Virus genome (UHGV): UHGV-1550212
Reading direction: 5' to 3' (one strand)
Length of the DNA stretch: 64,000 nucleotides
Source of the DNA: a virus
Position numbers and translations under genes: made by a program. A model generated the notes under the pieces. That model made no database searches. It worked only from the letters and a program-made list of their open reading frames with translations, and had not been told where the DNA came from. Shown here one piece after another: positions 23,400 through 60,616 of the stretch (its first letter is position 1; each line of letters begins with the position of its first letter).

Positions 23400-23433
23400 C
23401 TTGTATCTATGTTGTTGATTTTCAATTTAATAT

Positions 23434-23462
23434 ATTGAACAACATTTGTTGACATTTTGCAA
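23434..23462 (-). promoter_or_regulatory. Sigma70-like promoter (TTGCAA-N17-TTCAAT)
   Basis: Direct reading; upstream of 22572..23399. Confidence 0.4.
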
Positions 23463-23467
23463 CATTG

Positions 23468-23842: not shown

Positions 23843-23843
23843 A

Positions 23844-24335: not shown

Positions 24336-24358
24336 ATTAAGTATGTGTTTGTATGTTG

Positions 24359-30659: not shown

Positions 30660-33600
30660 CTATCGAACAATCGATGTAATTGATGCTACTGGTATCGTAC
30701 CAATGATTGATGTAGTTGAGCGGAAGTCTGCATAGACTTTAATGTCAAATGTGAACTCCTTGCCACCAATGTAGCATATGAAATTCATTGTTTTTGTGTA
30801 TGACAGCTTATTTTGCTGAGCATTGCTATCAATATCAGATGAACCAACTGCATCAGTCATACGAGCTTGGAACAGCAATGGTATCAACAATGCATTATTT
30901 TCGCCAGGCTTAACTACATAAGCTGCAGAATCAGTGCTATTCGAAACTTGCATTTGATTGACTGCAGTTGGATTCAACAACAAGAATGCACCACGACTAT
31001 TTGCACCAACTGCATAGACATCATTGTCTGTGAATGCACATTTAGGTGCGTTTTCTGCAGTAAGTTCAAGTGGCAGAATCTGCTGATACTTTGATTTGAT
31101 GACAGAATTGAACTTAGCAAGCTCTGCAAATGCTGCAGTCAATGTTGCTTTTGTTTGTTCATTCTTATTTGCTGAGTATGCAATCCATGCTGGATGCTGA
31201 ACAGACATCAGATTGTATGCATCTGGTGATACTGTCGACTTCAATGCGATTGCTTCATAATCATCGCCATTCTTATGAACGAACTTGCGATTTGCTGCTT
31301 GTGCAGAAGTATCAATGTTTTGTGTTTCTACAGTAGACGATGATGGTGTTTCTGCAGCAACGTACAGCTTTTCTGTGCCTGCTACGTTTTTCAAGCCAGC
31401 ATACAATGTTTGACCCATGTATTGACGAGTGCCATACGGTGCTAAGATGTCATTGCTGTCATATGCATCGCTGTTAAGTACAACAGGTACGTCATAGACA
31501 TCTGCGAAATCTTGCAGCTTGTCTGTAATATGCTGTGACAAGTCGCCATGATATCGTGGGTACAATGAGATGTTTTCTGCACCAATGTTGTAGAACTTCA
31601 ACCAATATTGTCGAGTAAGCACTTTGCCATAGTTGTCTGCTGAAGTGATGTCAAACTTATCTGCATAAGTGCCTGCAAACAAAACATTGCTTGACCCATT
31701 CAGAATTTCTGTTTGATTGCCCTCATCATCTACAATTGCGACTCGAAGCATTGAGCCTTGATTCAAAATGATGTCTTTGAGCTGCGCAACTTCATTGCTA
31801 AGCGACAGTAGTTTTTCATATGTAGTCACTTTTGCAAGCTCTGATGTGAAGAAGCCTGATGCAATGTTTTGAGCATTGTGGGCGTAGTAGATGTTGTTTT
31901 CTGAGAATGCATCTGCAATATGCTTGATAAGTCCTTTGTTCTCAAGCATATTTTCAAGAGCCACATTTTGCTTATCAATTGCAAGTTCATCTTTAAGCGT
32001 GACGAACATTGCAGAAGCTGCAAGACTTTCTGGGAACTGAATGCTGACAATGTTTGACCACTCAGACTCATTGAGCACGTTTGGATAGCCTGCTTCACCA
32101 ATCGCCTTAACGCGGAACTGAACAATCTCATTAGCAGAAATTGGAATTTCAAGCTGATTGCATGAGATTGCGTCAATTGATTCTGAATTGATTGGCTCCC
32201 ATTGAATGCTACCATCGACAATGATTTTGCGACGAAGTGGCGTAAATACTTCATTCCATGTGCTAAATGCTGCTGTCGTAATTGTGCCTGCTGCATTTTC
32301 GATGTCAAATGTGTCTGCCTTTGCTACTGTGCCATTCAATGATGCATATCTGTACTGCACCTTGAATTGCACAATGTTTTGTGCTGCAGTAAACCTACTG
32401 ATTGCAGGGTCTTGTACCGGTAAGAAGCCTCGAACTCTGAACTTTGGATTGTACAATGCGTCATATGCAGCACCATTGATATTCAGCATCTCATCAATGA
32501 TATTTGTGAGTGTTTGCAGTCGTTCTGCTCTTTGCTGAGTCAATGTAACATATTGTGTAGATGCTTTTTGACGTTCAACGTCATTCTTGAAATTATTTGT
32601 ATTGAGCTTTGACATCACAGATGCGATATCAGAGTCAAGTACCGACATTTCTTGCTGAACTGCTCGTTTTTGATTGTACAATGACAAAATTCGAGATTTG
32701 TCAGTGTTGTCAATCAAATGCGTGTTAAGTTGAATGACTTTGAATGCTTCTGCTGACAATTGTAGACGATTTGGCTTAATTGCATATTGCGATGGCGCAA
32801 GCATATCAGTAGTCAATGCTGCAATATAAGCGCCAATTGATGCGTCGCCATGTGACAACATATACGAGTTTGCATTGACAAGCTCATTTGTTGCAGTACG
32901 AATTGTAAGTGTTGCAGTGTCAATCAAAACTGCTGGGCTGTACTGAGCTACTGTGTTGTATGCATCATGCACAGGCGACAAGAACAGCACGAATTTTTCA
33001 GAATGTCGAAGTGGCACTTCAACGACTTTTCTAACAACAGGCTCTACAAAGACGAGGTCAGTGACTTCTACATTCAATGCATTCAAGCCTGCAGTACGCT
33101 GCAGTATGCATGTTTGTGACAGTTTGTCAATTGAGACAATTTGCAGTAATACTGAACCAGTCGGGTCTGATAACGTGTCACCGACTTTCAATGTCAGTGA
33201 ACCGGCAGCCTTTGCGTCAATTGCATCATATACAATGCTGTCAAGTTTGACAGCGATTGTGCCATTGTTCGCATTTTGCTTCTTGAGAATTTTGAAGCTG
33301 CCACTTGATGCTGCTCGTCGTGGTCGCAAATTAACTGTGAAGTCTTCAAGAGTATAGTCATCATCAGTATGCCAGCCATGCGCATCAATTTCAGCAAGCA
33401 ATGCAGCATGGCTCATTTCAATGCCTGTTTGTGCCACAATTTGCTGCAATGCAGCAAACATGGCGTCTGAGCATATGTACTTTGTAACTTGACATTGTTT
33501 AAGATACGATGATGCTTGACCAGTCACATCAATTTGCACGTGCATACCAAGCGCTGTTGTGCGTTCAAGCATATCATTGCCAAGTGCGACAACATTGTTA

Positions 33601-33965
33601 TCTTCTGCTATCGTGCCTTGCAAAGTTTTCAAAGTCTCAGGCTGATTCAACAAGCTCATATGCACCATTGTACGCATATTGTTGTTTGCATCTACAAGTT
33701 GTGCATACAACTGCTCGCCATTATTTAAGCCTGTCAAGACTTTCATGTTTTGCTCAATGACAGCCATGCGACGTTGAATTGACGCAAAGCTTGGTACAGT
33801 AATGCTTGTTGTGCTGCCATCGTCATTTGTCAATGTTATTGTGACTGTATCTTCTGATGATGACACTGCAGCTTGCAGCACATCAAGGTATTGCAGACTA
33901 TTGTCATACAGTTGCTTAATGTCTGACAGCAATTGTTGCATTGCATTTGTTGAAACTTCTGACAT
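30660..33965 (-). CDS. Large virion protein (1101 aa), tail/baseplate candidate
   Basis: Trimmed to ATG 33965 (MSEVSTNAMQQ); size and neighbourhood only. Confidence 0.6.
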   Translation of the reverse strand: MSEVSTNAMQQLLSDIKQLYDNSLQYLDVLQAAVSSSEDTVTITLTNDDGSTTSITVPSFASIQRRMAVIEQNMKVLTGLNNGEQLYAQLVDANNNMRTMVHMSLLNQPETLKTLQGTIAEDNNVVALGNDMLERTTALGMHVQIDVTGQASSYLKQCQVTKYICSDAMFAALQQIVAQTGIEMSHAALLAEIDAHGWHTDDDYTLEDFTVNLRPRRAASSGSFKILKKQNANNGTIAVKLDSIVYDAIDAKAAGSLTLKVGDTLSDPTGSVLLQIVSIDKLSQTCILQRTAGLNALNVEVTDLVFVEPVVRKVVEVPLRHSEKFVLFLSPVHDAYNTVAQYSPAVLIDTATLTIRTATNELVNANSYMLSHGDASIGAYIAALTTDMLAPSQYAIKPNRLQLSAEAFKVIQLNTHLIDNTDKSRILSLYNQKRAVQQEMSVLDSDIASVMSKLNTNNFKNDVERQKASTQYVTLTQQRAERLQTLTNIIDEMLNINGAAYDALYNPKFRVRGFLPVQDPAISRFTAAQNIVQFKVQYRYASLNGTVAKADTFDIENAAGTITTAAFSTWNEVFTPLRRKIIVDGSIQWEPINSESIDAISCNQLEIPISANEIVQFRVKAIGEAGYPNVLNESEWSNIVSIQFPESLAASAMFVTLKDELAIDKQNVALENMLENKGLIKHIADAFSENNIYYAHNAQNIASGFFTSELAKVTTYEKLLSLSNEVAQLKDIILNQGSMLRVAIVDDEGNQTEILNGSSNVLFAGTYADKFDITSADNYGKVLTRQYWLKFYNIGAENISLYPRYHGDLSQHITDKLQDFADVYDVPVVLNSDAYDSNDILAPYGTRQYMGQTLYAGLKNVAGTEKLYVAAETPSSSTVETQNIDTSAQAANRKFVHKNGDDYEAIALKSTVSPDAYNLMSVQHPAWIAYSANKNEQTKATLTAAFAELAKFNSVIKSKYQQILPLELTAENAPKCAFTDNDVYAVGANSRGAFLLLNPTAVNQMQVSNSTDSAAYVVKPGENNALLIPLLFQARMTDAVGSSDIDSNAQQNKLSYTKTMNFICYIGGKEFTFDIKVYADFRSTTSIIGTIPVASITSIVR

Positions 33966-43783: not shown

Positions 43784-44842
43784 TTACTGCTTCAAGCCTG
43801 TGAACAGTTCATACTTGAATGCAGGCCCTGCTGTGTAAGCCTCAAAGTAGAAGTCACCAATATTGATGCTTGCAATAGCGTCATCGACAGCTTTCTTGTA
43901 GCCTACACGTTCAATTGTCTGCTTATCGCATTTACGCCAATATGTGCTGTGCATCATAAGCGTGGGTGATGCAGCATAGTCTACTGCAAGCTGTTGTTTT
44001 GCAGTGTCAATGTGATGTTCATAGATGTGCACATCATTGCCAGTCCAAATGAACTCTCTTGCCACACAGTTAGTCAATGTTGCAACAATATGTGTAAGCA
44101 ATGCATATGATGCGATATTGATGGGCACACCAAGACACATGTCACAGCTACGCTGAGTAAGCGCACAGTCAAGCCACATGCTTGGTACTTGAGCAGAATC
44201 AAGGCATTCTGCAGAACCATCATGCACAAGCATGCTATCATTAGCAATCTGAATTCGTTCTTCAAGAGTCATTGGCTGACAATTGAACTGAAACAGCATA
44301 TGACATGGCGGCAATGCCATCTGAGACATTTGCGCAGGATTCCATGCAGACACGACTTTGTAGCGGCCAGTTGGATTGATGACAATGTCTTTAATGCAAG
44401 TTGCAAGTTGGTCAAATCCACTGTCATTGAAGTTGCGCCACTGATACCCATAGATAGGTCCGCAATCACCATACTCAGGTTTGCTGAATTTTGTGTTGTG
44501 CAGTTCTGTGCACCAAGTGTCAAAGTCGACATCTTCACCTGGATGCAGCTTTTGCCAATGACGATATGCATCCTGATGCCAGAACTTTGTAATGCCAAGC
44601 GTGTCAAGCGTTTTGACATTAGTGTCACCTGACATAAACCACAGAAGTTCTCCAATGACGCCTTTGACAAACATTCTCTTGGATGTCAACAGTGGAAAGC
44701 CTTTACGCAAATCAAATCGCATTGATTCTACAAACAATGACTTTGTGCGAGGCATGTTTTCACGAGCAGGTTCCTTAAATCTGCCATGCTCAATAACATT
44801 ATTAAGTACTCTCAAGTACTCAGTGTCGTGTTTGATATTCAT
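43784..44842 (-). CDS. thyA: Thymidylate synthase (ThyA family) with an internal insertion
   Basis: FPLLTSKRMFVKGVIGELLWFMSG, GPIYGYQWRNF, ALPPCHMLFQF, QRSCDMCLGVPINIASYALL; Asn at the pyrimidine-specificity position. Confidence 0.8.
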   Translation of the reverse strand: MNIKHDTEYLRVLNNVIEHGRFKEPARENMPRTKSLFVESMRFDLRKGFPLLTSKRMFVKGVIGELLWFMSGDTNVKTLDTLGITKFWHQDAYRHWQKLHPGEDVDFDTWCTELHNTKFSKPEYGDCGPIYGYQWRNFNDSGFDQLATCIKDIVINPTGRYKVVSAWNPAQMSQMALPPCHMLFQFNCQPMTLEERIQIANDSMLVHDGSAECLDSAQVPSMWLDCALTQRSCDMCLGVPINIASYALLTHIVATLTNCVAREFIWTGNDVHIYEHHIDTAKQQLAVDYAASPTLMMHSTYWRKCDKQTIERVGYKKAVDDAIASINIGDFYFEAYTAGPAFKYELFTGLKQ

Positions 44843-48065: not shown

Positions 48066-48947
48066 TTATCGTTTGAATTTGATGAAGTGTTCAGCATCAA
48101 GGCCCTCAAATATGTACGGGTCAAGAGTTTCCCAGAAGTTTGAGTATGTCGTTGTCTTTGCAATACTTGTCTGCTTTGACAAGTTCATGTTTGGATAGCC
48201 AAGCATTGCATAGTGTCGCTCATATATGTGCATTGACGTTGCATTATGCATATAAGCGCCAAGCTTAAGACCAAGTTCATTTGCGACAAGTTCTTGCAAC
48301 AAAGTGAATGCAAACTGGTCGTTACAGAAGCCCCAAATGACATCATTGCTTCGCATATATGTTGTCAAGTACAGCTTATCACCACGAACATTGAAAACAA
48401 GATTCAATGTGCACGGCATATCTTTGCCAGTGTAGTTTGCATATTGCGGCTCATAAATGCTAATAACTGCTCGTCTTGTGCATTCATGATTTCGCAAACG
48501 TTCAATGACATCTGCAATCTGCTTGTGCCAAATTGCGCCATACTGTGAATTGACATTGACGCCATCATCACTGAACTGCTTCCAACGAGGCAAATAACGT
48601 TCAATGCATTCAACTGCAGGATTGGCTGTCATATACCATGCAAATTCTGCAGCAGCATTGAGCTTTTTCCATGGTCGTACATCAATCTTGATTTGTCGCT
48701 GTGAAGGGTCCTGAATAACTACAGACACATTCAGCAATTCTTTTGTTCGAGTCACTGTTTGTGCATTGTTGCCCTTTGATTCTACAAACTCACCTCTACA
48801 ATGAAGTTCATACAAAATTGAGCGAAATGCTTCTGTTGCAGTGTTTTCAACGATTGTCGTCTGTTGATAGCATAAATTTGACGACAATGCTTCAGCATCA
48901 TTGTACTTTATGCTGTCATTGTCATAAGGTGAATTTTTTGTGTGCAT
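48066..48947 (-). CDS. dCMP hydroxymethylase-like ThyA-fold enzyme (T4 gp42-like)
   Basis: ...DMPCTLNLVF, YMRSNDVIWGFCNDQFAF, SMHIYERHY; Asp at the position where thymidylate synthases have Asn. Start at 48947 chosen; ATG at 49088 also possible (would overlap HAD gene). Confidence 0.65.
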   Translation of the reverse strand: MHTKNSPYDNDSIKYNDAEALSSNLCYQQTTIVENTATEAFRSILYELHCRGEFVESKGNNAQTVTRTKELLNVSVVIQDPSQRQIKIDVRPWKKLNAAAEFAWYMTANPAVECIERYLPRWKQFSDDGVNVNSQYGAIWHKQIADVIERLRNHECTRRAVISIYEPQYANYTGKDMPCTLNLVFNVRGDKLYLTTYMRSNDVIWGFCNDQFAFTLLQELVANELGLKLGAYMHNATSMHIYERHYAMLGYPNMNLSKQTSIAKTTTYSNFWETLDPYIFEGLDAEHFIKFKR

Positions 48948-48972
48948 ATTTTGGGATGTTTGTTTTTTATTA

Positions 48973-50067
48973 TCATACAACGATAGTATCTCGTTTGCAA
49001 TCTGTTTTGTCAAATATTGAACAACAATACGATGCAGATTGTTCTTTGATTTCAAGAGCTTCATCATTATCAAGTGATGAAATGCCATCTATGTATGCTT
49101 TTGCATTGCCAGCAATGTCATCATTTGTTAACAACGCTGCACGACGTTCAGTGCCAAAGAAGCCAAAGCACAATTGATGTTGCAGTGCTTCACGAGAAGT
49201 CTTGTCATCAAACTCTGATTTCATGTGTTGCATAAATTCGACAATATCATCAATGTCGCATTGAGTAAAGTCAATGCACAATTTATGCATGTACTTGAAT
49301 CGTTTGTAGTCTGTTGCAAGAATTTCTGGGTGCACAATGAACAACGTCTTTTTGCTGTCTATTGGATTTGCAATGACTGATGCTTGAACATAATCGACAA
49401 GCATACCAGATTCACGAAGTTGCTCAATTGTTTTGCCAAACACATGCCCAAGCGTGTCATCAAACCACTTCAAGTATGCTTCACTGTCTTCATCTTTTGA
49501 CGCGCCAACAATGTAAATCTCATTGACTCCAAGTGCTTTGAGACGAGTATCAGACAACATAGTATTCAATTGATGCTGCACGTACAGCATTGGGCTGCTA
49601 TGCAAAACCGTTTTAACAATCTCACAAGCAATGTCCATATATGCATAGTCAAGCTTTGCAGATTTTGACACATACACTGCACGTTGCTGCAATGGCTCAA
49701 TTGCCGAGCATGTAGTTACAAAGTTGCCAACACATTCTGCTACTGCAATGTCATGCAAGTCATCTGCAATGTACACAATACTTGACAAGTCATCAAATGT
49801 TTGAACAAGTTGCTGAAGCTTTGTTTTGTAATTGCAGAGCATCAATGACTTGATGTTGCAATTACTTAGCATTGTCTTGATGAGTCGTTGACCTGCTTCA
49901 GTGCTGTCACCAGAAATGACATGCACATCGCAGTCAAACCAGTTCAGCATGTCAATTGCATGCCGAACACCATATTGCATTTGTTTTGCAAACTTACCAG
50001 ATTCATTGAACAGCATTTCACCTGACATAATGCCGTCAAAGTCACATACGATTTGAAGTCTGTCCAT
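48973..50067 (-). CDS. HAD-superfamily phosphatase domain protein with C-terminal domain
   Basis: VCDFDGIM (motif I DxDG), VHVISGDS, IADDLHD. Confidence 0.55.
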   Translation of the reverse strand: MDRLQIVCDFDGIMSGEMLFNESGKFAKQMQYGVRHAIDMLNWFDCDVHVISGDSTEAGQRLIKTMLSNCNIKSLMLCNYKTKLQQLVQTFDDLSSIVYIADDLHDIAVAECVGNFVTTCSAIEPLQQRAVYVSKSAKLDYAYMDIACEIVKTVLHSSPMLYVQHQLNTMLSDTRLKALGVNEIYIVGASKDEDSEAYLKWFDDTLGHVFGKTIEQLRESGMLVDYVQASVIANPIDSKKTLFIVHPEILATDYKRFKYMHKLCIDFTQCDIDDIVEFMQHMKSEFDDKTSREALQHQLCFGFFGTERRAALLTNDDIAGNAKAYIDGISSLDNDEALEIKEQSASYCCSIFDKTDCKRDTIVV

Positions 50068-50431: not shown

Positions 50432-53400
50432 TTAACAAATTGATGATGTGCCATCAGTGTTTGCTACAACTGTCAATGCGCTATCAAACTCATCTTGCTG
50501 TAACACATGGTCAACTATGAGTGTTTTGCGAATTGCAGAAAGCTTAGTAAGCAACTGCATCAACACTTGCTGATAATTGATGGTGTTGACGTCATGCTCA
50601 GCGCCAACAATCTGCCCGTTGCTAAGCTTGCCGCTAATTTCATCAATGAGCAAGATGTTGCCAACTTTGTTTAAGCGTTGAGTCAAAATGAGATGCACGA
50701 TTGCAAGACCTGCGAAAGTCCCTTCCATACCAGACATTTGACTTACACTTCGAATTGACTTCGAGCCCATCAAGTCAATCATCTTTAGCACATTGTTGTC
50801 ATTGATGTCAAAGAACACTCGGTAGTTCAATGAATCAAGCAAATCATTGAGCTGTGCATTCAGTGATGTTGCAATTGCTGCAAAGACATATGAAACTAAG
50901 CCTCGTTTGCTTGTGCACTGCTTATATGCATTGTACACCAAGTTTGCAATGTTCCACTTTTTCGAAGCTTGCAAATCTTTCTTGAGAGCTTCAATTCGCA
51001 CATTGTTTGCTGACAAGTCTGCTTGCATTGTTGCAATTTCTGCATTGATGCTTAGCAGTTTTGAGTTTGCTTCAGTTTCATGCTGCTTAGCATCATCAAT
51101 GTCGACTTGCAATGCAGCGTTTGCCACAATATGCTGCTGAGTTTGCTGTGCATGTTCAAGTGCAAATGCTGCAGCAGTCTTGTCAATCTCAAGTTGTTTA
51201 AGAGTAGACTCATATGATGCTTTCTTATCATATTCTGCTTGAGCAATTTCAAGTTCAGCATTTATTGCAGCCAGTTCTGATTCTACTGCAGATTTTGATT
51301 GCAATACATCTTGCTTTGCTTGTTCAGCTTTACGTTTGATGTCTGCAAGTTGATTTGTGATATCTGCAATTTGCGTTTTGACTGCTTCAACTTCAAGCAA
51401 TGTTGCTGCAGTAGCCATTGGCTGTGCAATGAATGCATCCAAGTCTCTTTGCGCATTGACTACAGTTCTTTGCAAGTCATTAAGCTTTTCTGCATGCATA
51501 TCATATGCAGCTTTATGTGCTGTATTCAGTGCAGCAATTATTGCATTTGAATCTGTGACATCAATGATTGCTGCTTGCAATTGCTCAATCTCATACTTCA
51601 AATTGCCAATTTTGACAACATTCTCATTGAATTGCTCTGTCTTTTGCGCGTATTCTTGACGCAACTTAGCAAGCTCAGTTGACAACCACAGCTTGTATGC
51701 TTGCCCTGTGCCAGATGTCAAATCATTTGTGCACACAGGACATTTATCATTTTCAAGTTGCTTTTGCTTGTCTATAACATTGTCGATGTTTGTTTTTGCA
51801 GCAGATACTTCTGTTCTAAGTGCATTTTGAACAGTGTTGATGTCTTCAATTTGCTTTTGCAAAGCATCTATTTTTGCCCGAGTGTCTGCATTATATGACT
51901 TGCCAAGATTTACCAGCACAGAATCAATGCGCTGCTTTGCTGCATCATATGCAAGCTTTGATTCATCAAGCTTTGTTCTGTACAATGATTCTGCATGCGC
52001 AACTTCTTTCTGCACTTTTGCAGATAGCTCATTCTGTTTTGTAAGCAGCTCAGCATATGTATTGTGCAGCTGTGAGCCAGATGCTATGACATTTGTGTAT
52101 GCTGCATTAGCTTCATTGTCAATATTAGTGAGTTGTTGCTCAATCTGCGCTTTTACTGTTTGCAATTTAGACATGTCTTGCAATGCAAGTGCAGCAATGT
52201 CAAGCTCAACTTTGCGAATCTTTGCAACGATGCTATCGACATTTGCTGTTGCATCTTCTACAGTTAAAATATCTGCAGGAATTTGATGCAGTCTTTTTGA
52301 GAGCTCTTCTACTTTTGCACGTGCTTTTGTAAGTTTTGCAGACCATTCCCTTTGATTATCTTGTCGTAACTGCAAAGAGTCATTGAGTTCATTGCAAGTT
52401 GTATTGAGAGACTCAAGTTCTGCTTTTATTGCGACATCAGTCAATGCGGGCTTACTAAGGCCATCAAACAATGCGGCCTTTGCAGCATCATTAGAATTGC
52501 CCAGTTGCACGAATGTGTTGATGCCAAGAGTATCAAGCAACCAGTCATTCAATGAATTTGAATCCATTGCAATGATTTGGTCAAGTAATGTCTGATTGAT
52601 GCAGACATATCGCGACAATTCCCAGATAGAACCAAAGATTGCGTATAGCGTGTCTTTGATTTCATGCTGTGGCACTACGTAGTCATCTGACAATCTTACA
52701 AGCTGCACAGTCTCATTGACTGCTGACACGTTATCTCGCCATGAGCCATCTGCATTTATTCGAGAGCCCCGTTTGAATCTACGTTCAAGTGTTCGAGTTA
52801 ATTTGTAGTGAACATTTTGACCAGCTACTACATGTACAAATACACAAGATGCTTCAAGCTTATCATATGACTCATTGTCAATCAATTTGTCATTGAAGTA
52901 TGTCAAAGCGTTCTGCTTTGTTGCTGCAGAAGACTGTCCAGCGTCAATAAAGCCAGTCAGCAGCCATTTAATGAGTCTGAAGATTGTTGTTTTGCCATTG
53001 CCGTTGTTGCCTCTAACTTGTGTAAGCTGTGCAAGATTGTCAAAGCTGACATCGACATCTTTCAATGCCATGAACTGATTTGCTTTGACATTTTGAATGA
53101 CGTATTTTGCAACTTCAGTGTCAAAAGACAATTTATCAATTTGCTCATCAATCAATGACTTGAACATGTCAACAAACTGCTGAGCGTCTTCAGTAGCAAC
53201 TATAGCATTGCGTTCAATGTACGCATTGACCCAGTCAAGTGCAGCATCTTTAAGCCATTCAGCAGTTTGAACTTTTTGCAGCAAATTGTCGCCATTTGCA
53301 TCTACAGCATTGATTGAATCAATGACAGCAGAATCATACAGAATGTCAATTGCGGCAACAACGTATGAACTTACAAGATTCTGTGCAATGCGCTCAACAA

Positions 53401-54358
53401 TGCCAGACAGTTCGGGCTTTGTGACCTTTGACTTGATTTTGATTTTGTTGATGCGACCAGGATTGATGAGTGCAATCTTATCTGTTTTGATGTCATTGTC
53501 AATTGTGATTGTATGATAATGCACAAGCTGCTCAAGCGAATGCCACTCTACTACAATTCGCTTGTTGTCAATATCGATGTCAAGCAAGTTGTAGCCATGT
53601 TCTGCAGTGCCCTGTTGCGTTGCAGTGTCATTCAACAAATAGTCGCCTTCACCAAAATCTCTGACAATTGGCGAGCCGCAGTATGTCAATGTCTTGGTGC
53701 CAGAAGTCCATATTGCATGTTTGTGAATATCACCCATTGCAACAAAGTTGCTGTGAAACTGTGTTGCATCTATACGACTGTCATTGTCACCACGAACAAT
53801 GCAGTCATCAAAGTTGACGCAATTCTTTACAGGGTCATGGAACAGCTCAATAACACACATTGATGACAATGCAGCAATCTGCGATTCGTCAAGTGATGCC
53901 CAAGGCGAATATGTGCCACCAGACCACTTCTCATTTTGAGCCCATACTGCAGCAGCAAAACCAGGTGCAAGCAGTTCAACTCTTGAACTGTTGATATACT
54001 TGATTCGCTTGTCATCAATTGCAGTTACAAGCTTGTCAATGCTATCTGTCCACTGCATTTGTGAACCATCACCAGCATCAAATGTGTTATCACGTTGCTT
54101 CAAATCATGATTGCCAGCAGTAATGACAATTTGAAGCTTGTCATTGACTTCAAGCATGCCTTTGAGCAGCTTAACAAACAGCGACTCTTCAAGTGAATTG
54201 CTGTTCCACTGCTCAAACACATCGCCAACAATAAACACAAACTCAACCGACTTTGCTTTGTCAATTAGTTGTTTGTTGATGTGCTCATATTCTACGAAAC
54301 GTCGTAAATGCCCTTGTCGAACATTATATTGAATGTCTGCTATGTGAAGTGCTTTCAT
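50432..54358 (-). CDS. Mre11/SbcD nuclease fused to Rad50/SbcC ATPase in one 1308-aa polypeptide
   Basis: N-terminus HIADIQYN, FIVGDVFE, ITAGNHD, GDIHKH (calcineurin-like phosphoesterase); then VRGNNGNGKTTIF (Walker A), long coiled coil with CPVC hook, ILLIDEISG (Walker B), TLIVDHV. Confidence 0.8.
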   Translation of the reverse strand: MKALHIADIQYNVRQGHLRRFVEYEHINKQLIDKAKSVEFVFIVGDVFEQWNSNSLEESLFVKLLKGMLEVNDKLQIVITAGNHDLKQRDNTFDAGDGSQMQWTDSIDKLVTAIDDKRIKYINSSRVELLAPGFAAAVWAQNEKWSGGTYSPWASLDESQIAALSSMCVIELFHDPVKNCVNFDDCIVRGDNDSRIDATQFHSNFVAMGDIHKHAIWTSGTKTLTYCGSPIVRDFGEGDYLLNDTATQQGTAEHGYNLLDIDIDNKRIVVEWHSLEQLVHYHTITIDNDIKTDKIALINPGRINKIKIKSKVTKPELSGIVERIAQNLVSSYVVAAIDILYDSAVIDSINAVDANGDNLLQKVQTAEWLKDAALDWVNAYIERNAIVATEDAQQFVDMFKSLIDEQIDKLSFDTEVAKYVIQNVKANQFMALKDVDVSFDNLAQLTQVRGNNGNGKTTIFRLIKWLLTGFIDAGQSSAATKQNALTYFNDKLIDNESYDKLEASCVFVHVVAGQNVHYKLTRTLERRFKRGSRINADGSWRDNVSAVNETVQLVRLSDDYVVPQHEIKDTLYAIFGSIWELSRYVCINQTLLDQIIAMDSNSLNDWLLDTLGINTFVQLGNSNDAAKAALFDGLSKPALTDVAIKAELESLNTTCNELNDSLQLRQDNQREWSAKLTKARAKVEELSKRLHQIPADILTVEDATANVDSIVAKIRKVELDIAALALQDMSKLQTVKAQIEQQLTNIDNEANAAYTNVIASGSQLHNTYAELLTKQNELSAKVQKEVAHAESLYRTKLDESKLAYDAAKQRIDSVLVNLGKSYNADTRAKIDALQKQIEDINTVQNALRTEVSAAKTNIDNVIDKQKQLENDKCPVCTNDLTSGTGQAYKLWLSTELAKLRQEYAQKTEQFNENVVKIGNLKYEIEQLQAAIIDVTDSNAIIAALNTAHKAAYDMHAEKLNDLQRTVVNAQRDLDAFIAQPMATAATLLEVEAVKTQIADITNQLADIKRKAEQAKQDVLQSKSAVESELAAINAELEIAQAEYDKKASYESTLKQLEIDKTAAAFALEHAQQTQQHIVANAALQVDIDDAKQHETEANSKLLSINAEIATMQADLSANNVRIEALKKDLQASKKWNIANLVYNAYKQCTSKRGLVSYVFAAIATSLNAQLNDLLDSLNYRVFFDINDNNVLKMIDLMGSKSIRSVSQMSGMEGTFAGLAIVHLILTQRLNKVGNILLIDEISGKLSNGQIVGAEHDVNTINYQQVLMQLLTKLSAIRKTLIVDHVLQQDEFDSALTVVANTDGTSSIC

Positions 54359-54360
54359 AT

Positions 54361-54402
54361 TCTAAATGAGATTTAGATTATGTTCGAAATATATGAGAAC
54401 AT
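54361..54402 (-). promoter_or_regulatory. Leader element (copy 3): TCTAAATGAGATTTAGA + ATGTTCGAAATATATGAGAACAT
   Basis: Immediately upstream of Mre11-Rad50 ATG. Confidence 0.5.
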
Positions 54403-54417
54403 ATATTATATGTTGAT

Positions 54418-54446
54418 ATTGTACAACATATGTTATCATTTTGCAA
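54418..54446 (-). promoter_or_regulatory. Sigma70-like promoter (TTGCAA-N17-TACAAT)
   Basis: Direct reading. Confidence 0.45.
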
Positions 54447-54783
54447 GCATTTTGATGATTGCATCTATCACAGTTTCACTGAGCAAGTAGTAGACAACGC
54501 TTATCAGCAATGATATCAGTACTGCAGCTGTGATAAATTGCAACGCATTCACAATTGCACGCACAAATGTTATCTGCGTGTTGTATGCAAGCACTATGCA
54601 GCATAGCACAATAATGACACACCAGACTACAATTGCATATGCAGGCATCAATGAATTTGTCCATATGCAGTACAATACAGTAATTAGCATCAAAAATGCT
54701 ATTGCTCTGATAACTGACACAATGATGTCTATGTAAGGCTTCATTGCACGCAAATGAACTCTTGGTTTATGTTGCTTCATCAT
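54436..54783 (-). CDS. Multi-pass membrane protein (115 aa)
   Basis: ATG start; hydrophobic. Confidence 0.55.
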   Translation of the reverse strand: MMKQHKPRVHLRAMKPYIDIIVSVIRAIAFLMLITVLYCIWTNSLMPAYAIVVWCVIIVLCCIVLAYNTQITFVRAIVNALQFITAAVLISLLISVVYYLLSETVIDAIIKMLAK

Positions 54784-56012
54784 GACTTTATGTACAATTC
54801 TGCAAGTTGTCTGGTGTACAGTCGTGGATTATGATATGCTTTCCAATACGCAGTAGACTTTATTGCAGCAAGAATTTCATCATAATGTTTGACTGCTTCT
54901 GCTACAACTTCATCAAGCACGCTCAAATCTTCTACACTGACAAGCAACCATTTTTCTACAATATCAATGAACTCCTGATTGCAATTGAAGCCATACTTGT
55001 AGTTGCAAGTATCAAGTACAAGTGGAATGCAATCATTTGTCAATGCTTCAAAAAATCTACGAAGACTGAAACAATTCTCATCATATGATGGAATGCTCAA
55101 TGTAAACTTGGCAGTCTTGATGAGTTGCAAATACTCTTCGTATGGAATCAGAGGACCATTGTGCTTCCATTGATTATTGTGTCGTCTTGTCGTGTACTTG
55201 AACAAAAACTTTGAATTGTCAAGTTCACAAAGATGGTCCATGCGTAAAATGTAGTTATAGCGGTCTCTTCTGTCAGGCCAACTGTCAGTCATCGCAAACA
55301 CAAAGTCTCTTTGCTTGTCACATTTTGCTGACATACCTCTATGCTGACACATGCAATACCAATATTGCTGCGATGGGCTGAACTCAAACTTTGAATGATG
55401 CTCACTTCCATCTTTGCATTGCTGAACATAAATGTTGTCAGGCACAAAGTGAAAATAAAAGTGTCGAATTTGCAAGTCATTGATGTAGTCAAGCTTATGC
55501 TGCAATGGGTCTTCACAGAAATTGTAACACTGAATATGCTTTGCTGCTGCGTACTCAGCAACTATGAACGTGCACATCCATTGCAATGCAATATCTTCAC
55601 TCTTCAAAAAGTTTACAAGCGGCTCATTTGGATGCGCTTTGCATTCATTGAACATTTTGTACCACTTGCATTGCTCCATATCGTACTTTGATACTGTATT
55701 GCCATTAAAGAACGACACAGTGTCAATTTTGAATGCATCAAGTTGTTTATGCACAATGTCAAGTGCTTGTGCGTATGTGATTGTCTCATCAGACATTATC
55801 TGCGCAAACTTGATTGGATGCGCATGCAAATTTGCGATAGTGTCTGCCGACATTTTACGCTGTGTGTGATAATCGACATACAAAAACTGACACTTGTCTG
55901 TAAGCAATTCAAGCATTGCTACAGATTTCCATCGAATTGCTTGAAAGAAATTGAAGTGTGCAGTTTGAAAGATGAGATGCGTAGGTTTATCAGAATGAGT
56001 CAAAGTTTGCAT
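54780..56012 (-). CDS. Glycosyltransferase-like protein (GT-B type), cassette 1
   Basis: C-terminal ...IPSYDENCFSLRRFFEALTNDCIPLV (E...EA..x.P motif); paralog of 59060..60616. Confidence 0.45.
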   Translation of the reverse strand: MQTLTHSDKPTHLIFQTAHFNFFQAIRWKSVAMLELLTDKCQFLYVDYHTQRKMSADTIANLHAHPIKFAQIMSDETITYAQALDIVHKQLDAFKIDTVSFFNGNTVSKYDMEQCKWYKMFNECKAHPNEPLVNFLKSEDIALQWMCTFIVAEYAAAKHIQCYNFCEDPLQHKLDYINDLQIRHFYFHFVPDNIYVQQCKDGSEHHSKFEFSPSQQYWYCMCQHRGMSAKCDKQRDFVFAMTDSWPDRRDRYNYILRMDHLCELDNSKFLFKYTTRRHNNQWKHNGPLIPYEEYLQLIKTAKFTLSIPSYDENCFSLRRFFEALTNDCIPLVLDTCNYKYGFNCNQEFIDIVEKWLLVSVEDLSVLDEVVAEAVKHYDEILAAIKSTAYWKAYHNPRLYTRQLAELYIKS

Positions 56013-57175
56013 GGACAAATGTCGCAGTTATGTTGATGTTTGTGTTTATTTATGAAGTCATATGTCACTGCAAAAAAGTGCTTTGCAATGTCATATCGAG
56101 TTTTCAAATATGCTGCTTGGCGTTCACAAAACGCTGCATAAATGTCTGGGTGTCGTTTGAATGCAGCAATGCGTTGCTGTACTTGTTCTGCAGAATGTAC
56201 ATATGACACTTTGCTCAAATATGCATCATCTGCAAATAATCGTCTGTCTTTGTCAACTGCGCAATCAACAAAAGTTGCAATTCGTGCAACAATGGCTTCA
56301 CCAACACGATTTGGCATCAACCCATATTGCTCATATTGTTGGTCACCGATAGCAATGTGCGCTGCTGCATATGACATTGCATATGGCACACTATAAAATG
56401 GCACACTAAAATCAAATGAGCAATTTGACTGTAGTAGTTGCGTTTGTGCATCAGACAATCTACTTGTCAAGTTGCCTGTATGTTTGTGCTCACCAAGAAA
56501 ACTTGAGCGACAACCTGAATCTACATAGTATCGAATGACTTTGTTTATGCGACTGTCAGATAGCATATGCCAATCTCTTGTAGCATATATCAAGTCTACT
56601 GTTTTTGCACCAATATGACGAGGCTCTATCGCAACATTGCTGTATGTTGGCAGCATGAACAATGGCAGCCATTTGACATTGTTGAACACTGAATGTTCAT
56701 TTGACAAATTCATGCACTGGCTAAGTTCAAGTACTGGCTCATCATACACGCCATGCAGTTCAACTCTGCCTGCATGCACAAAGTTGACACGCTTAAATGG
56801 AAATCGCATATCAGTGCAAACCGTCATTCTTGCTGCAGTAGACATTCGCCACATAGCATGCAGCTTAACAACTGCTTCGGCTTGAGGTCGAGGCAGCATA
56901 TTTAGCAAATCAATCCAGCCACCCCACAAAATCCAAACATCATTTGAACAGATGTTGAATTGCAAACTCAATATGTCTTCTACTGTTGCAGCAATGATGT
57001 CATGCCCATTGATGCTTGCAAGGTGCTTTCGTTGATTTGCAATAAGAATGACTTGACTGAACGGAGACTCTGGAAATGACACAAGCGCCTTTGCAAACAA
57101 CACGGGTTCTTGTGATACCAAGTTGTTTGAGTATGGGTCGATTATGCAATCAAGCTTGTGTATGAAAAGTCTCAT
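56000..57175 (-). CDS. Possible DNA glycosyltransferase, cassette 1 partner
   Basis: ...ILWGGWID...TVCTDMRFPF; paralog of 60613..61779; resemblance to T4 beta-glucosyltransferase is from memory and weak. Confidence 0.4.
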   Translation of the reverse strand: MRLFIHKLDCIIDPYSNNLVSQEPVLFAKALVSFPESPFSQVILIANQRKHLASINGHDIIAATVEDILSLQFNICSNDVWILWGGWIDLLNMLPRPQAEAVVKLHAMWRMSTAARMTVCTDMRFPFKRVNFVHAGRVELHGVYDEPVLELSQCMNLSNEHSVFNNVKWLPLFMLPTYSNVAIEPRHIGAKTVDLIYATRDWHMLSDSRINKVIRYYVDSGCRSSFLGEHKHTGNLTSRLSDAQTQLLQSNCSFDFSVPFYSVPYAMSYAAAHIAIGDQQYEQYGLMPNRVGEAIVARIATFVDCAVDKDRRLFADDAYLSKVSYVHSAEQVQQRIAAFKRHPDIYAAFCERQAAYLKTRYDIAKHFFAVTYDFINKHKHQHNCDICPCKL

Positions 57176-58240: not shown

Positions 58241-58445
58241 AGTCTGAGGCAATCAAATCTTTGTCAAAGCATTCATCTATAATGTCTTCAATAAGATACG
58301 CTTCGACATTGTTAAGCTTCAAGATATCTACGAGTTTTGCTTTGATATCGCAAGCTAATGCAGATTCAACTGTATGCAATATGACTGATGATGCGACATG
58401 CTTGTCTGTCATCATTTGTAATTGCTGTGGTGTTACTCTACTCAT
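58230..58445 (-). CDS. Hypothetical protein (71 aa)
   Basis: ATG start, ATGA overlap with kinase gene. Confidence 0.45.
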   Translation of the reverse strand: MSRVTPQQLQMMTDKHVASSVILHTVESALACDIKAKLVDILKLNNVEAYLIEDIIDECFDKDLIASDCAK

Positions 58446-59014
58446 GCGCCAAGTTCAGCTAAGCATTTTAGCACATTGTCTTGCAGACTTACATTGTTGT
58501 CGATTTCGACAATATGCAATGGTGAGTTCTTTCGCCACTCATCATATGCAGCAATCATTTTATTGCGTTTGTTGACATCAATGTTGACATCGCCACAAAA
58601 GTTATCAACAAAATCTGGTGCAACATCACGCTTGCATAAGAACACTATATGCGGCAATGTTGCAAGCTTCTTTTCATATGCTTCAAAGAATGCTTGATGC
58701 TTATCAGTGTGCAACTCTTTGTAAAGCGTTGTGTTAAAGATTTGATGTGTGATGAACGAACGGTCACACAAAAATGTTGCTTTGCCAAAGCCTTTAGAGT
58801 CATTTCCAATGAACTCTAAGAAGAAGCGCCAATCATAAAAGAACGCTTCATTGAGGTCCCAAGGTTCGGGCATTGGGTCATCACCTGACTCATGCTGTTG
58901 CCACCAAGAACGAGATGTTCGTTTGCAATTGATAAACCATGGGCGCCACTTCATCAATTCATTGATGAGTGTTGTTTTGCCTGAAGCTTCTACACCTTCA
59001 AATATCGCTATCAT
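58442..59014 (-). CDS. P-loop nucleotide kinase (thymidylate kinase-like)
   Basis: IAIFEGVEASGKTTLI (Walker A). Confidence 0.65.
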   Translation of the reverse strand: MIAIFEGVEASGKTTLINELMKWRPWFINCKRTSRSWWQQHESGDDPMPEPWDLNEAFFYDWRFFLEFIGNDSKGFGKATFLCDRSFITHQIFNTTLYKELHTDKHQAFFEAYEKKLATLPHIVFLCKRDVAPDFVDNFCGDVNIDVNKRNKMIAAYDEWRKNSPLHIVEIDNNVSLQDNVLKCLAELGA

Positions 59015-59039: not shown

Positions 59040-59068
59040 ACAGTACAACGTAGTTATGCTCATTGCAC
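59040..59068 (-). promoter_or_regulatory. Weak sigma70-like promoter (GTGCAA-N17-TACTGT)
   Basis: Direct reading. Confidence 0.3.
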
Positions 59069-60616
59069 TTCTACGAATGGCTCTTTCAACACAAAGCTGT
59101 CACCATTGCAACATGCGGCTGAGCCATCGTCTGCATCAAGTGCACATGACATATCAGACTTGCAGAACTTGCAATATAAACATGACCATGCATGACTCAT
59201 GAAGTTGTTTGCTTCACAAATTGCGCAACGCTCATGCATAAGTGCATTGTCGCAATTATCACAAGACTTCTTGATTGGCACAGTTTTGTTGATGTATGCA
59301 AGATGCAATGCAATATCATACACAAAGTCACCCGTATATTGCTGAATGAAATCAGTATGCCACAACTCTTTTAACAATTGTGCATGTCTATATGGCTGAA
59401 CAATGTCTTCAAGATGCTGCAAGTCATCATCGCTAACCATGAGCTTCTTAATGACAAATTGTTTGAACTGTGGCCATCTGTCAAACATATAGAGTTTGCA
59501 TGAGTTGTGCACAAGTGGAACACAGCCAAGCACAATGCTTTCACAGAATCTACGCAAACTAAAACAGTTTGCATCATATGACGGCACAATCAATGTGAAT
59601 CTGCTATGCTTGATGAGTTCAAGGTATGTGTCATATGGCAGTAGCTTATCTGACAATTGCTGTTGTTGTTTGTCTCTGCTGAAAAATCTGAACACAATAC
59701 CCTTGTCAATTGCATCTTGATTGTGCAGATGCATGAGTTTGTTGATGAGTTCTGTGCGTTCAGTTTTGTCTCGCCAAGTATTCGTCAATGCAAATGCAAA
59801 ATTCAGTCGCTTGTCATCAAACGTCGCTTCAATATCATTCCAAGTTTTGTCATGCAAATACCAGTATTGCTGTGATGGGCACCATCCATAATATGCAATA
59901 GCATCTTGTTCTGCTGTAACGTCATACACATATGCAGAATTGTATTCAAGGCCAAGCCTTTTGACGTTGTTGCAGTCATGAAAGTACCAATGCTGCACTT
60001 TGAATATCTTTGATGCACTGAATGCGCTTTCATATGGCCCTGAATAGCGATAGTCAATGTAATTGAGCTTGTGCTGCAATGGGTCTTCGACAAAGTTGTT
60101 TATGACTGTGCCTTGTTGTTTGCCCTTAGTCTTGCGAGCATTCAATGCAACATTGTATTGCATGATGACTGACAGCATCTCATACACTACATACATGAGT
60201 GCTTTGTAGACTGAGCCTGCTGCGTCAATTAGTGGCAAATCACGTTTGACTGATGTAGCGCCAAATGTCTTGCAATATGCAGAAAATGTGTCAAGTTCTG
60301 CTTGCTGAAATGAATTGCATGCACCATTGAATATGTTGAATGTTGCAATGTAGCTCATATTGCAAGATGTCATTGACATATCAAGACGCTTCATAATGTC
60401 GACAATGCGACATTGAGCAAAATCTGACACATCAACATATTTGACATGATGGCCTGATGTAGTCAAGCCATCTGCGACATCTTTCATCTGTGGCACAAAG
60501 CCTACAACAATGAATAAGTCATCTTTGTTTGCTCGTTCAAACATTGCTGCACTTTTCCAAGTCAATGAATTGAAAAAGTCTATGTAGCCAGTTTGAGTGA
60601 TTATATGCGTTCTCAT
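59060..60616 (-). CDS. Glycosyltransferase-like protein (GT-B type), cassette 2
   Basis: ...VPSYDANCFSLRRFCESIVLGCVPLV; N-terminus also parallels 54780..56012. Confidence 0.45.
   Translation of the reverse strand: MRTHIITQTGYIDFFNSLTWKSAAMFERANKDDLFIVVGFVPQMKDVADGLTTSGHHVKYVDVSDFAQCRIVDIMKRLDMSMTSCNMSYIATFNIFNGACNSFQQAELDTFSAYCKTFGATSVKRDLPLIDAAGSVYKALMYVVYEMLSVIMQYNVALNARKTKGKQQGTVINNFVEDPLQHKLNYIDYRYSGPYESAFSASKIFKVQHWYFHDCNNVKRLGLEYNSAYVYDVTAEQDAIAYYGWCPSQQYWYLHDKTWNDIEATFDDKRLNFAFALTNTWRDKTERTELINKLMHLHNQDAIDKGIVFRFFSRDKQQQQLSDKLLPYDTYLELIKHSRFTLIVPSYDANCFSLRRFCESIVLGCVPLVHNSCKLYMFDRWPQFKQFVIKKLMVSDDDLQHLEDIVQPYRHAQLLKELWHTDFIQQYTGDFVYDIALHLAYINKTVPIKKSCDNCDNALMHERCAICEANNFMSHAWSCLYCKFCKSDMSCALDADDGSAACCNGDSFVLKEPFVEVQ

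Follow-up and report, generated by a model that had tools for sequence, protein, structure and literature searches.

In a 64-kb stretch of the virus genome UHGV-1550212 (hereafter the window), one gene encodes an Mre11 (SbcD)-like nuclease and a Rad50 (SbcC)-like ATPase as one polypeptide. In all likelihood, this gene encodes the phage's own Mre11-Rad50 DNA-end-processing machine in single-chain form, which by analogy does the job shared by gp47 and gp46 in T4 and by SbcD and SbcC in bacteria. The uninterrupted open reading frame (ORF) in the ORF list of the window is exactly 50432..54358 (-) and is complete, with 1308 aa and a stop codon. With an in-frame TAG only two codons further upstream (54364-54362), the ATG at 54358 is its sole possible start. 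The family profile matches nothing else in the window, and a family HMM search found no unfused second Mre11 or Rad50 gene there. The protein matches PHROG 35725 in two stretches (E 5.9e-114, 383 bits), with the best joining residues 2-736 to profile positions 8-752 of 1376, and by this sequence criterion PHROG 35725 is its family. The preliminary description had placed both domains in a 1308-aa protein, and Pfam and profile searches do detect both in the single ORF, along with every motif it named: GNHD at 82-85, Walker A, C873-P-V-C876, Walker B, and H1284.

The Mre11/SbcD-type calcineurin-like nuclease domain and its capping domain occupy residues 1-300 (53459..54358 (-)), as delimited by Pfam, profile, AF2, and Foldseek results. 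The nuclease motifs here are D8-x-Q10, G45-D46-x-x-E49, G82-N83-H84-D85, H174, and G209-D210-x-H212. Pfam Metallophos matches residues 1-103 above gathering (E 2.9e-5), while the family profile reaches SbcD 4lty at 1.1e-11, SbcD 7dog at 6e-10 (positions 5-244), and Pyrococcus furiosus Mre11 1ii7 at 5e-9. The family profile is needed for this relationship to emerge, as a single-sequence PDB search with phmmer returned marginal matches only (E 0.04-0.9). The NCBIfam sbcd model scores the fused protein at 35 bits, which is below its cut-off of 77.65. For structure prediction with AF2, the 1308-aa chain was modelled as monomers in two overlapping contiguous fragments. The model of residues 1-640 has an overall pLDDT of 89.5, rising above 90 across residues 1-300, and the best 50 Foldseek matches of the nuclease-half model in the PDB are all Mre11/SbcD, including 4hd0 (1.4e-12), 7yzp SbcD (1.8e-12), and 3dsd (2.1e-12), with target TM-scores of 0.55-0.68. 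The N-terminal part is predicted to fold as a calcineurin-like phosphoesterase that carries a capping domain.

The preliminary description put the nuclease motifs in the first ~280 aa with Walker A directly after them, which is inexact in one detail: ~140-170 residues intervene after H212 and the capping domain and before residue 450. In the AF2 models, this intervening stretch (~290-420) comprises the beta sheet of the capping domain along with a small alpha/beta unit and four helices. The linker region itself, drawn from the secondary structure of both models, spans residues 301-420 (53099..53458 (-)). Its alpha/beta unit is formed by a strand at 303-310, a helix at 320-331, and a strand at 334-341, followed by helices at 343-351, 356-363, 366-383, and 389-408, with a low-confidence loop at 348-355. 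The last two helices are confidently modelled directly before the Rad50 N-lobe, where they may occupy the place of the Rad50-binding helix-loop-helix (HLH) of Mre11, an equivalence drawn from position alone; no sequence-level HLH match was obtained in the linker.

The ATPase half opens with the Rad50/SbcC N-lobe at residues 421-641 (52436..53098 (-); Pfam, profile, and AF2), which contains Walker A (G450-NNGNGK-T457, residues 450-457, with G455, K456, and T457 at its end) and the Q-loop position Q589. Pfam AAA_23 matches residues 427-690 above gathering (E 2.9e-10), PDB searches place Rad50 and SMC head matches at positions 430-480, and the family profile finds Rad50 9bi4 at 3e-11. An antiparallel coiled coil follows at residues 642-1148 (50915..52435 (-)), supported by AF2, zinc-hook profile matches, and the SbcC-like PHROG 77, with an outgoing arm at ~641-870 and a returning arm at ~883-1148 in the AF2 model, ~500 residues in total. 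At its tip, AF2 and the alignment locate a hook loop at 871-882 carrying C873-P-V-C876 (CxxC at 51731-51742 (-)). Pfam Rad50_zn_hook matches weakly here (862-883), and the family profile finds the Rad50 hook structures 6zff (1e-8) and 1l8d (1.9e-7). The models therefore depict a long antiparallel coiled coil whose apex is a CxxC hook with a predicted zinc site, in place of the hinge of SMC proteins. The C-lobe, at residues 1149-1308 (50435..50914 (-); alignments, AF2, and Foldseek), contains the signature S1209-G1210-M1211-E1212, the LLIDE Walker B ending in D1239-E1240, and the H-loop D1283-H1284. A split ABC-type ATPase head of the Rad50/SbcC family is present in the fused protein.

These ATPase and hook elements are well kept among full-length representatives of the family: K456 in 153/153, the hook cysteines in 152/153, the Walker B DE in 151/153, and the H-loop His in 145/153. 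The signature is S-G-M-E/Q, a variant of SGGE/Q, with S in 148, G in 149, and M in 146 of the 153, and the Q-loop Gln is moderately conserved (86/153). The AF2 model of the Rad50 part has a pLDDT of 83.3, and its best Foldseek match in the PDB is Chaetomium thermophilum Rad50 (7zr1, 5e-18). Human Rad50 is also found, and Escherichia coli SbcC (7yzp_C) matches at 1.6e-8 with a target TM-score of 0.60.

Instead of a replication or recombination enzyme, the protein could be a conflict-system SMC/Rad50-like ATPase-nuclease, comparable to Lamassu, Wadjet, or OLD-type systems, that is directed against competing phages or plasmids or that destroys host DNA. PADLOC Lamassu LmuB matches residues 435-1295 (E 1.6e-16), with weaker matches to PbeC, DndD, and JetC, and Foldseek recovers JetC, MukB, and Lamassu LmuB. 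T4 gp46/47 also takes part in host DNA breakdown. This similarity is generic to the SMC/Rad50 superfamily, however, and the best structural match is Rad50; a CxxC hook is characteristic of Rad50/SbcC, and the nuclease has the Mre11/SbcD fold, which sets it apart from Cap4, Toprim, and OLD nucleases. The neighbouring ORFs include no LmuA/LmuC or JetABD partners. Far from being a sporadic accessory gene on an island, the fused gene belongs to the conserved core of an entire phage lineage and of giant viruses. A conflict function is thus highly improbable. The PADLOC and NCBIfam scans turned up nothing beyond generic SMC/Rad50 similarity and SbcD scores below threshold, and the defence-system reading was rejected.

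The Mre11-type and Rad50-type genes of T4 and bacteria neighbour each other in an operon (PMC3175470), so one indel could in principle join them. The apparent fusion might then be an artefact, in which a frameshift from sequencing or assembly, or the loss of a stop codon, ran adjacent sbcD-like and sbcC-like genes together and no fused protein exists. The chance of this is vanishingly small. Full-length fusions make up 153 of 160 aligned sequences (1104-1484 aa), and these 153 representatives come from 50%-identity clusters and independent assemblies. At E <= 1e-30, a family profile search retrieves 266 representatives; among the best 150, almost every one matches positions 1-637 in one stretch. 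The junction (residues 280-430) aligns unbroken in 17 homologues, down to 19% identity, and is likewise continuous in the 153 representatives. An identical 1308-aa protein occurs on three independent contigs, the linker is confidently folded in AF2 and not junk, and the gene is a single CDS in the complete genomes of the cultured phages PAU (gp288) and MA9V-1 (ORF70), and likewise in PTm1. A stop or frameshift between the domains, the break that the preliminary description advised looking for, is excluded as far as sequence comparison allows, with all 153 full-length relatives and three cultured phages continuous. The artefact appears effectively refuted already, and the fusion is evidently real and conserved.

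Closer homologues (97%, 51%, and 34-39% identity) are found only in metagenome assemblies; one cluster member of the family is mislabelled 'myosin-1' in public naming. A search for near-identical DNA in a phage collection found no similarity to any deposited phage, and the best cultured relatives share ~25% protein identity, so the source phage is a new, uncultured relative. Against plasmids, tblastn matched only the first 89 residues, to an ordinary Rhizobium sbcD. The fused family is therefore not evident on plasmids, with the plasmid fusions described in 2011 being too distant for BLAST.

The active site departs from the canonical set, as DxH...GDxxD...GNH[DE]...H...GHxH is not fully matched in the 1308-aa protein. 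Motif I is D8-I-Q10 instead of DxH, motif II is GDxxE49 vs the canonical GDxxD, and motif V is G209-D210-I-H212 instead of GHxH. The positions of Q10 and D210 are those that ligate Mn1 and Mn2 in P. furiosus Mre11. Within the family, D8, D46, N83, H84, H174, H212, and K456 are invariant in 96/96 members, while the substitutes are nearly so, with Q10 in 93/96 and D210 in 95/96. Positions 10 and 49 covary, Q10 occurring with E/Q49 and H10 with D/H49, and no subfamily loses a position outright. His206 and His208 of P. furiosus Mre11 are cited by Yoshida, Claverie and Ogata, and Mimivirus R555 likewise has Asp at the His206 position (PMC3175470). The DxQ/GDxH pattern is a conserved variant of the family and not decay, and strong purifying selection acts on the catalytic residues of both modules throughout a large family of viral proteins.

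Loss of metal-binding histidines at Q10 and D210 in motifs I and V is what might be expected of a catalytically dead scaffold, in which the Mre11-like domain would not bind a dinuclear metal centre and the protein would act as a Rad50-like tether or ATPase only, or recruit another nuclease. The near-invariance of both replacements, each of which can ligate metals via oxygen, speaks against this, as do the complete conservation of all other ligands and the catalytic His84, whereas dead domains normally drift, the orderly covariation of positions 10 and 49, and the identical Asp in R555. A dead scaffold is accordingly improbable. An active nuclease remains the preferred reading, and with two metal-ligand histidines replaced its chemistry could depart from that of textbook Mre11. 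The family-wide DxQ for DxH, GDxH for GHxH, and SGM for SGG are mildly novel. A more ambitious and rather unlikely proposal is that the exchange of two His metal ligands for oxygen ligands (DxQ covarying with GDxxE, and GDxH), together with SGM, could define a biochemically distinct Mre11-Rad50 class, in which, for example, the nuclease would use Mg2+ instead of Mn2+ or be coupled differently to the ATPase.

The fusion arrangement has been known since 2011 and is common in big phages and giant viruses. Natural Mre11/Rad50 fusions were described by Yoshida, Claverie and Ogata in Mimivirus (R555, 1351 aa), Bacillus phage 0305phi8-36 (A7KV18), Clostridium kluyveri and Deferribacter plasmids, and several eukaryotes, along with many fused genes in aquatic metagenomes predicted to be phage (PMC3175470). 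The novelty implied by the preliminary description does not hold, as these fusions were published in 2011 (PMC3175470) and the family is common and has its own PHROG. The class was defined by an Mre11-like then a Rad50-like domain in one ORF with a spacer of capping/HLH length (PMC3175470), and this is the arrangement found here, the spacer between the two parts being ~120-170 residues. Mre11-then-Rad50 order also fits the Thermotoga maritima complex, in which the termini lie ~28 A apart (PMC3175470).

Compared by its published description, R555, whose function was stated to be unknown (PMC3175470), shares with the window protein its domain order, similar size (1351 vs 1308 aa), long coiled coil, and Asp at His206, but has DxH and GDxxH where the window protein has DxQ and GDxxE. 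Distant members of the profile search carry the exact R555 pattern (DxH, GDxxH, Asp206). Foldseek against BFVD retrieves fused proteins of giant viruses (Bodo saltans virus, Klosneuvirus, Harvfovirus, Tupanvirus, Yasminevirus, and Tetraselmis virus) at 1e-30 to 3e-22 over ~650-730 columns, and at the ~15% identity of these structural alignments the window protein belongs to a distinct phage subfamily. A7KV18 is found at 1.5e-15; it has 769 aa and is without one ATPase segment (PMC3175470), while the Rad50 part of the window protein is complete. The closest cultured counterparts are the PHROG 35725 'metallo-phosphoesterase' orthologues of Sphingomonas phage PAU (gp288), Tenacibaculum phages PTm1, PTm5, and pT24, and Chryseobacterium phages MA9V-1 and MA9V-2. 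These jumbo-phage proteins match structurally in BFVD at 9e-48 to 1e-42, each encoded as a single CDS in a large myovirus. PTm1/PTm5 and MA9V-1/-2 carry full-length orthologues (98-100% query coverage, 25-26% identity), and PAU gp288 covers 81% of the query in two joined pieces, also at 25-26% identity. In public annotation and in the MA9V-1 paper, the gene's name reflects the phosphoesterase half alone. T4 gp47/gp46, E. coli SbcD/SbcC, and archaeal and eukaryotic Mre11/Rad50 have the same two folds, ATPase motifs, coiled coil, and CxxC hook, but unlike the fused protein they are two polypeptides from adjacent genes, with canonical DxH and GHxH and an SGG-type signature, and their sequence similarity to it is weak (E 0.04-0.3 in single-sequence phmmer).

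The fused gene belongs to a module for replication and nucleotide metabolism in a large myovirus (tailed phage). Myovirus structural genes share the window with genes for a DNA polymerase, a polymerase exonuclease subunit, a helicase, and thymidylate synthases, and the immediate neighbours of the fused gene are ThyA-like, glycosyltransferase-like, and unclassified proteins. Almost every jumbo phage has SbcC/SbcD homologues, which are read as core recombination apparatus (PMC7824862). By analogy with T4 gp46/gp47, the most likely role of the protein would be ATP-gated DNA-end processing that serves repair and recombination-dependent replication. A scan of 30 ORFs, either near the gene or large, recognised neither a recombinase (UvsX/RecA type) nor an SSB; most of the genome lies outside the window. 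Because none was recognised among the annotated ORFs of the window, the tie to recombination-dependent replication is made by analogy.

Mre11/SbcD enzymes are Mn2+-dependent 3'-5' exonucleases and endonucleases, stimulated or gated by Rad50 ATP hydrolysis, and the canonical complex is M2R2. By comparison with Mre11-Rad50/SbcCD and T4 gp46/47, two fused chains would form an M2R2-like assembly as a homodimer, held together by the nuclease dimer interface, ATP-driven head engagement, and zinc-mediated hook pairing. DNA ends would be clamped by the ATP-bound heads, and ATP hydrolysis would reposition the nuclease to cut near ends or hairpins through its 3'-5' exonuclease and endonuclease activities, leaving products that would serve as substrates for strand invasion, through which the phage genome would undergo recombination-dependent replication and have its double-strand breaks repaired. 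In essence, the fusion would hard-wire the Mre11 C-terminus to the Rad50 N-terminus, termini that are close in the canonical complex. Fixed 1:1 stoichiometry, put forward in the preliminary description as a benefit, is trivially true of a fusion, but the canonical complex is already 1:1. Nothing in the sequence, the context, or the literature consulted bears on the further idea in that description that a single chain might evade host inhibitors of complex assembly.

Current understanding is not overturned by the fused protein. As a natural single chain, it would be a convenient model for structures of the complete M2R2 machine, and the versions from cultivable phages (PAU, PTm1, MA9V-1) would offer a practical reagent for work on structure and mechanism. 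Testing the DxQ, GDxH, and SGM variants would cost little and might inform on the metal selectivity of Mre11 nucleases. With these genes called only 'metallo-phosphoesterase' or 'DNA repair' in public records and isolate papers, the phage Rad50 is effectively unannotated. The family confirms the 2011 prediction that the fused genes abundant in environmental data are largely phage-borne, and comprises at least ~150 distinct 50%-identity clusters of full-length fusions, linking jumbo phages of the PAU/PTm1 type to giant viruses of the Mimiviridae type.

The Mre11-Rad50 fusion gene occupies positions 50432-54358 on the minus strand, where the ORF list of the window holds a single unbroken ORF of 1308 codons, exactly matching the position and length given in the preliminary description. 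Because an in-frame TAG lies two codons 5′ of the ATG at 54358, this ATG is the sole possible start, and the N-terminus of the protein, MKALHIADIQ, lines up with those of all homologues in the alignment. Both the nuclease and the ATPase domain were found in this one ORF by Pfam (Metallophos, residues 1-103; AAA_23, residues 427-690; both above gathering thresholds), and the Rad50 zinc hook gave a weak match to residues 862-883. The alignments likewise contain every motif that had been listed from the sequence: GNHD of the nuclease (residues 82-85), Walker A (G450-NNGNGK-T457, residues 450-457), the hook C873-P-V-C876 (residues 873-876), a Walker B whose last residues are D1239-E1240, and H1284 of the H-loop. 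The initial statement that the nuclease is directly followed by Walker A was inexact, as a capping domain and helical linker intervene at ~290-420.

The two halves of the protein adopt the folds expected of Mre11 and Rad50. On the nuclease side, the family profile matches structures of SbcD (4lty, 1.1e-11; 7dog, 6e-10, positions 5-244) and of Mre11 from P. furiosus (5e-9); on the ATPase side, it matches heads of Rad50 and structures of its zinc-hook coiled coil in isolation, 6zff (1e-8) and 1l8d (1.9e-7). An AlphaFold2 model of residues 1-640 (mean pLDDT 89.5) was compared with the PDB using Foldseek, where the best 50 matches are all Mre11/SbcD chains (best E 1.4e-12; target-normalised TM-scores ≤0.68), with the nuclease and capping domains covered. 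The stretch that joins the capping domain to the ATPase contains two confidently modeled helices, 366-383 and 389-408, which sit where the Rad50-binding helix-loop-helix of Mre11 lies and by position may be its equivalent. The model of residues 285-1308 (pLDDT 83.3) shows a complete Rad50 layout, running from the N-lobe through a ~230-residue helix, a 12-residue loop with CPVC, and a returning helix to the C-lobe. Each coiled-coil arm of this model contains one low-confidence, partly non-helical stretch, at residues ~689-729 (window ~52172-52294) and ~1025-1074 (window ~51137-51286); roughly equidistant from the ATPase head, the two stretches suggest a conserved interruption or joint. The top Foldseek match of this model is Chaetomium thermophilum Rad50 (7zr1, 5e-18), followed by SMC-superfamily proteins; SbcC of E. 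coli is also among the matches (1.6e-8; TM-score on target 0.60). Since a CxxC hook takes the place of an SMC hinge, the protein is grouped with Rad50/SbcC. A role as a defence-system component, to which an LmuB match of 1.6e-16 and the presence of JetC, MukB, and LmuB among the structural matches might point, reflects only generic SMC similarity and is contradicted by the Mre11 fold of the nuclease, the CxxC hook, the absence of partner genes, and the conservation of the gene as a core gene across the viral lineage.

Whether this Mre11-Rad50 chain could be an artefact of assembly was addressed through its homologues. Among 5.8 billion clustered proteins, 18 relatives were retrieved; each is 1284-1401 aa long and most align full-length, at identities from 97% down to ~22%, with the nuclease-ATPase junction unbroken in the alignment. 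A profile built from the nuclease, linker, and ATPase N-lobe (residues 1-640) was run against 1.84 billion 50%-identity representatives and found 266 proteins with E ≤ 1e-30. Of the 150 best, nearly all are 1100-1480 aa in length and cover profile positions 1-637 in one stretch. Full-length fusions make up 153 of the 160 aligned sequences (median 1324 aa). Two cultured phages with complete genomes encode the protein in one annotated CDS, which is gp288 in Sphingomonas phage PAU and ORF70 in Chryseobacterium phage MA9V-1, and three independent contigs carry the identical protein. On this comparative evidence an artefact is excluded, and the continuous junction, the 153 full-length representatives, and the cultured-phage CDSs indicate that the fusion is real. 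The unannotated 735,411-bp 'megaphage' record LR756501/LR756503 (uncultured phage) also carries a relative, at 280181-282115, which matches residues 5-715, the nuclease and ATPase N-lobe, in one piece; the fused architecture thus reaches the largest known phage genomes.

The novelty implied for the fusion in the preliminary description was not borne out. Natural Mre11/Rad50 fusions were first described in 2011 by Yoshida, Claverie and Ogata, with examples in Mimivirus (R555, 1351 aa), Bacillus phage 0305phi8-36, C. kluyveri and Deferribacter plasmids, and several eukaryotes; those authors also noted an abundance of R555-like genes in aquatic viral fractions and considered them probably phage-borne (PMC3175470). 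PHROG 35725 (profile length 1376) is the same family (E 5.9e-114). The proposal that a single chain might evade host inhibitors was unsupported. When predicted viral structures were searched with the 1-640 model, the orthologues of the jumbo phages PAU, pT24, and PTm1 ranked first (9e-48 to 1e-42), followed at 1e-30 to 3e-22, over 650-730 aligned columns, by fused proteins from Bodo saltans virus, Klosneuvirus, Harvfovirus, Tupanvirus, Yasminevirus, and Tetraselmis virus that are labelled 'DNA repair exonuclease/SbcCD' and mostly ~1200-1400 aa long, and then by A7KV18, the fusion of phage 0305phi8-36 (1.5e-15). What is new here is the estimate of family size, the structural-level link between jumbo phages and giant viruses, and the DxQ/GDxH/SGM variant pattern. 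Public annotation of these genes is poor: they are recorded as 'DNA repair' or 'metallo-phosphoesterase', and the name 'myosin-1' is even attached to one member of a cluster.

Residues D8, D46, N83, H84, H174, H212, and K456 are invariant in 96 aligned members. Of the 153 full-length representatives, 152 retain the hook cysteines, 151 the D-E of Walker B, and 145 the histidine of the H-loop, so that both modules are under purifying selection. Three motifs depart from the textbook forms: motif I is D-x-Q in place of D-x-H (Q in 93/96 aligned members), motif V is G-D-x-H in place of G-H-x-H (D in 95/96), and the ABC signature is S-G-M-E/Q in place of S-G-G-E/Q (M in 146/153 full-length representatives). 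The nuclease variants covary, with Q10 pairing with E/Q49 and H10 with D/H49, while the ~12 sequences with His at position 210 all have Q10. A catalytically dead nuclease domain is unlikely given the invariant catalytic residues and this covariation, whose orderliness argues for an altered yet functional metal site. Like the phage family, R555 has an Asp where P. furiosus Mre11 has His206, as already reported (PMC3175470), and its exact motif pattern is also seen in distant profile matches of the family. A non-exhaustive survey of the literature on Mre11/Rad50 fusions and jumbo phages found no mention of the DxQ variant.

The nearest deposited relatives of the fusion protein, at ~25% identity, belong to the jumbo phages PAU, PTm1/PTm5, pT24, and MA9V-1/2 (~213-235 kb), and no DNA-level match to the window was found among deposited phage genomes; the window therefore represents an uncultured large myovirus distantly related to the PAU/PTm1/MA9V-1 group. 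Sizeable ORFs lie on the minus strand in 58 of 62 cases. Structural genes include a myovirus tail sheath, portal, prohead-protease-containing giant ORF, baseplate protein, and adaptor, and the replication/nucleotide module encodes a helicase, an exonuclease subunit of the polymerase, and a family-B DNA polymerase split over two ORFs, along with two members of the thymidylate synthase family. The polymerase ORFs (24724-26229 and 21138-22430, minus strand) match consecutive parts of phrog_262 (positions 111-489 and 504-842) and are separated by ~2.3 kb with four small ORFs (22572-24703). A 1371-aa ORF (3705-7820, minus strand) matches a head-maturation protease (phrog_207, 5e-32) in its first ~320 residues only, the remaining ~1050 residues having no match. 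The 1101-aa product of 30660-33965 (minus strand), large and conserved in the phage group, is without annotation and matches phrog_29329, a PHROG of unknown function, over its full length (9e-156). No second Mre11 or Rad50 gene was found within the 64-kb window.

Immediately around the fusion gene lie a divergent ThyA-like gene, several genes with weak similarity to glycosyltransferases, and unknowns. The two thymidylate-synthase-family genes lie within 5 kb of each other: a strongly matching ThyA (43784-44842, minus strand; phrog_160, 7e-85) and the divergent gene (48066-49088, minus strand; phrog_5131, 1.3e-48; Pfam Thymidylat_synt, 9e-24), whose longest ORF extends 116 nt into the next gene and whose public gene call is 293 aa. 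Pyrimidine hydroxymethylases are typically encoded by a second, divergent ThyA paralogue, and this one hints at modified DNA bases. Just upstream of the fusion gene, three minus-strand ORFs (54780-56018, 56000-57175, and 59060-60616) give weak glycosyltransferase-like matches, all below curated thresholds (Exostosin GT47 and Glyco_trans_1_2, 9e-5 to 6e-6; phrog_7922 beta-glucosyltransferase, 5e-8), and a P-loop kinase-like ORF lies at 58442-59014. These ORFs and the ThyA paralogue may form a DNA hypermodification cluster for glycosylated hydroxymethyl-pyrimidine. Two inverted sequences, the perfect 10-nt palindrome AACATATGTT and the near-palindrome AACATATAATATATGTT, lie in the AT-rich, 77-nt intergenic spacer upstream of the fusion-gene start (54359-54435) and may be a regulatory or terminator element. 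No Shine-Dalgarno sequence is recognisable in this spacer, a feature consistent with the hosts of several related phages, which are Bacteroidota.

Practically every jumbo phage encodes SbcC/SbcD homologues, which are viewed as core recombination machinery (PMC7824862). The observations made here concern how the domains are arranged and folded, which catalytic residues are conserved, and where the gene sits in the genome; oligomeric state, activities, and in vivo role are inferred. By homology to Mre11-Rad50/SbcCD and T4 gp46/gp47, the fusion protein would form a homodimer equivalent to M2R2, in which ATP-engaged heads would clamp DNA ends; following hydrolysis, the nuclease would be given the DNA for exonucleolytic and endonucleolytic processing, and the products would be substrates for recombination-dependent replication and break repair. 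The Mre11-then-Rad50 order agrees with how the T. maritima complex is laid out, where the Mre11 C-terminus lies ~28 Å from the Rad50 N-terminus (PMC3175470). The fusion itself is no surprise to the specialist; the conserved active-site variants, together with the availability of a natural single-chain Mre11-Rad50 in cultivable phages, lend themselves to a small, testable project.
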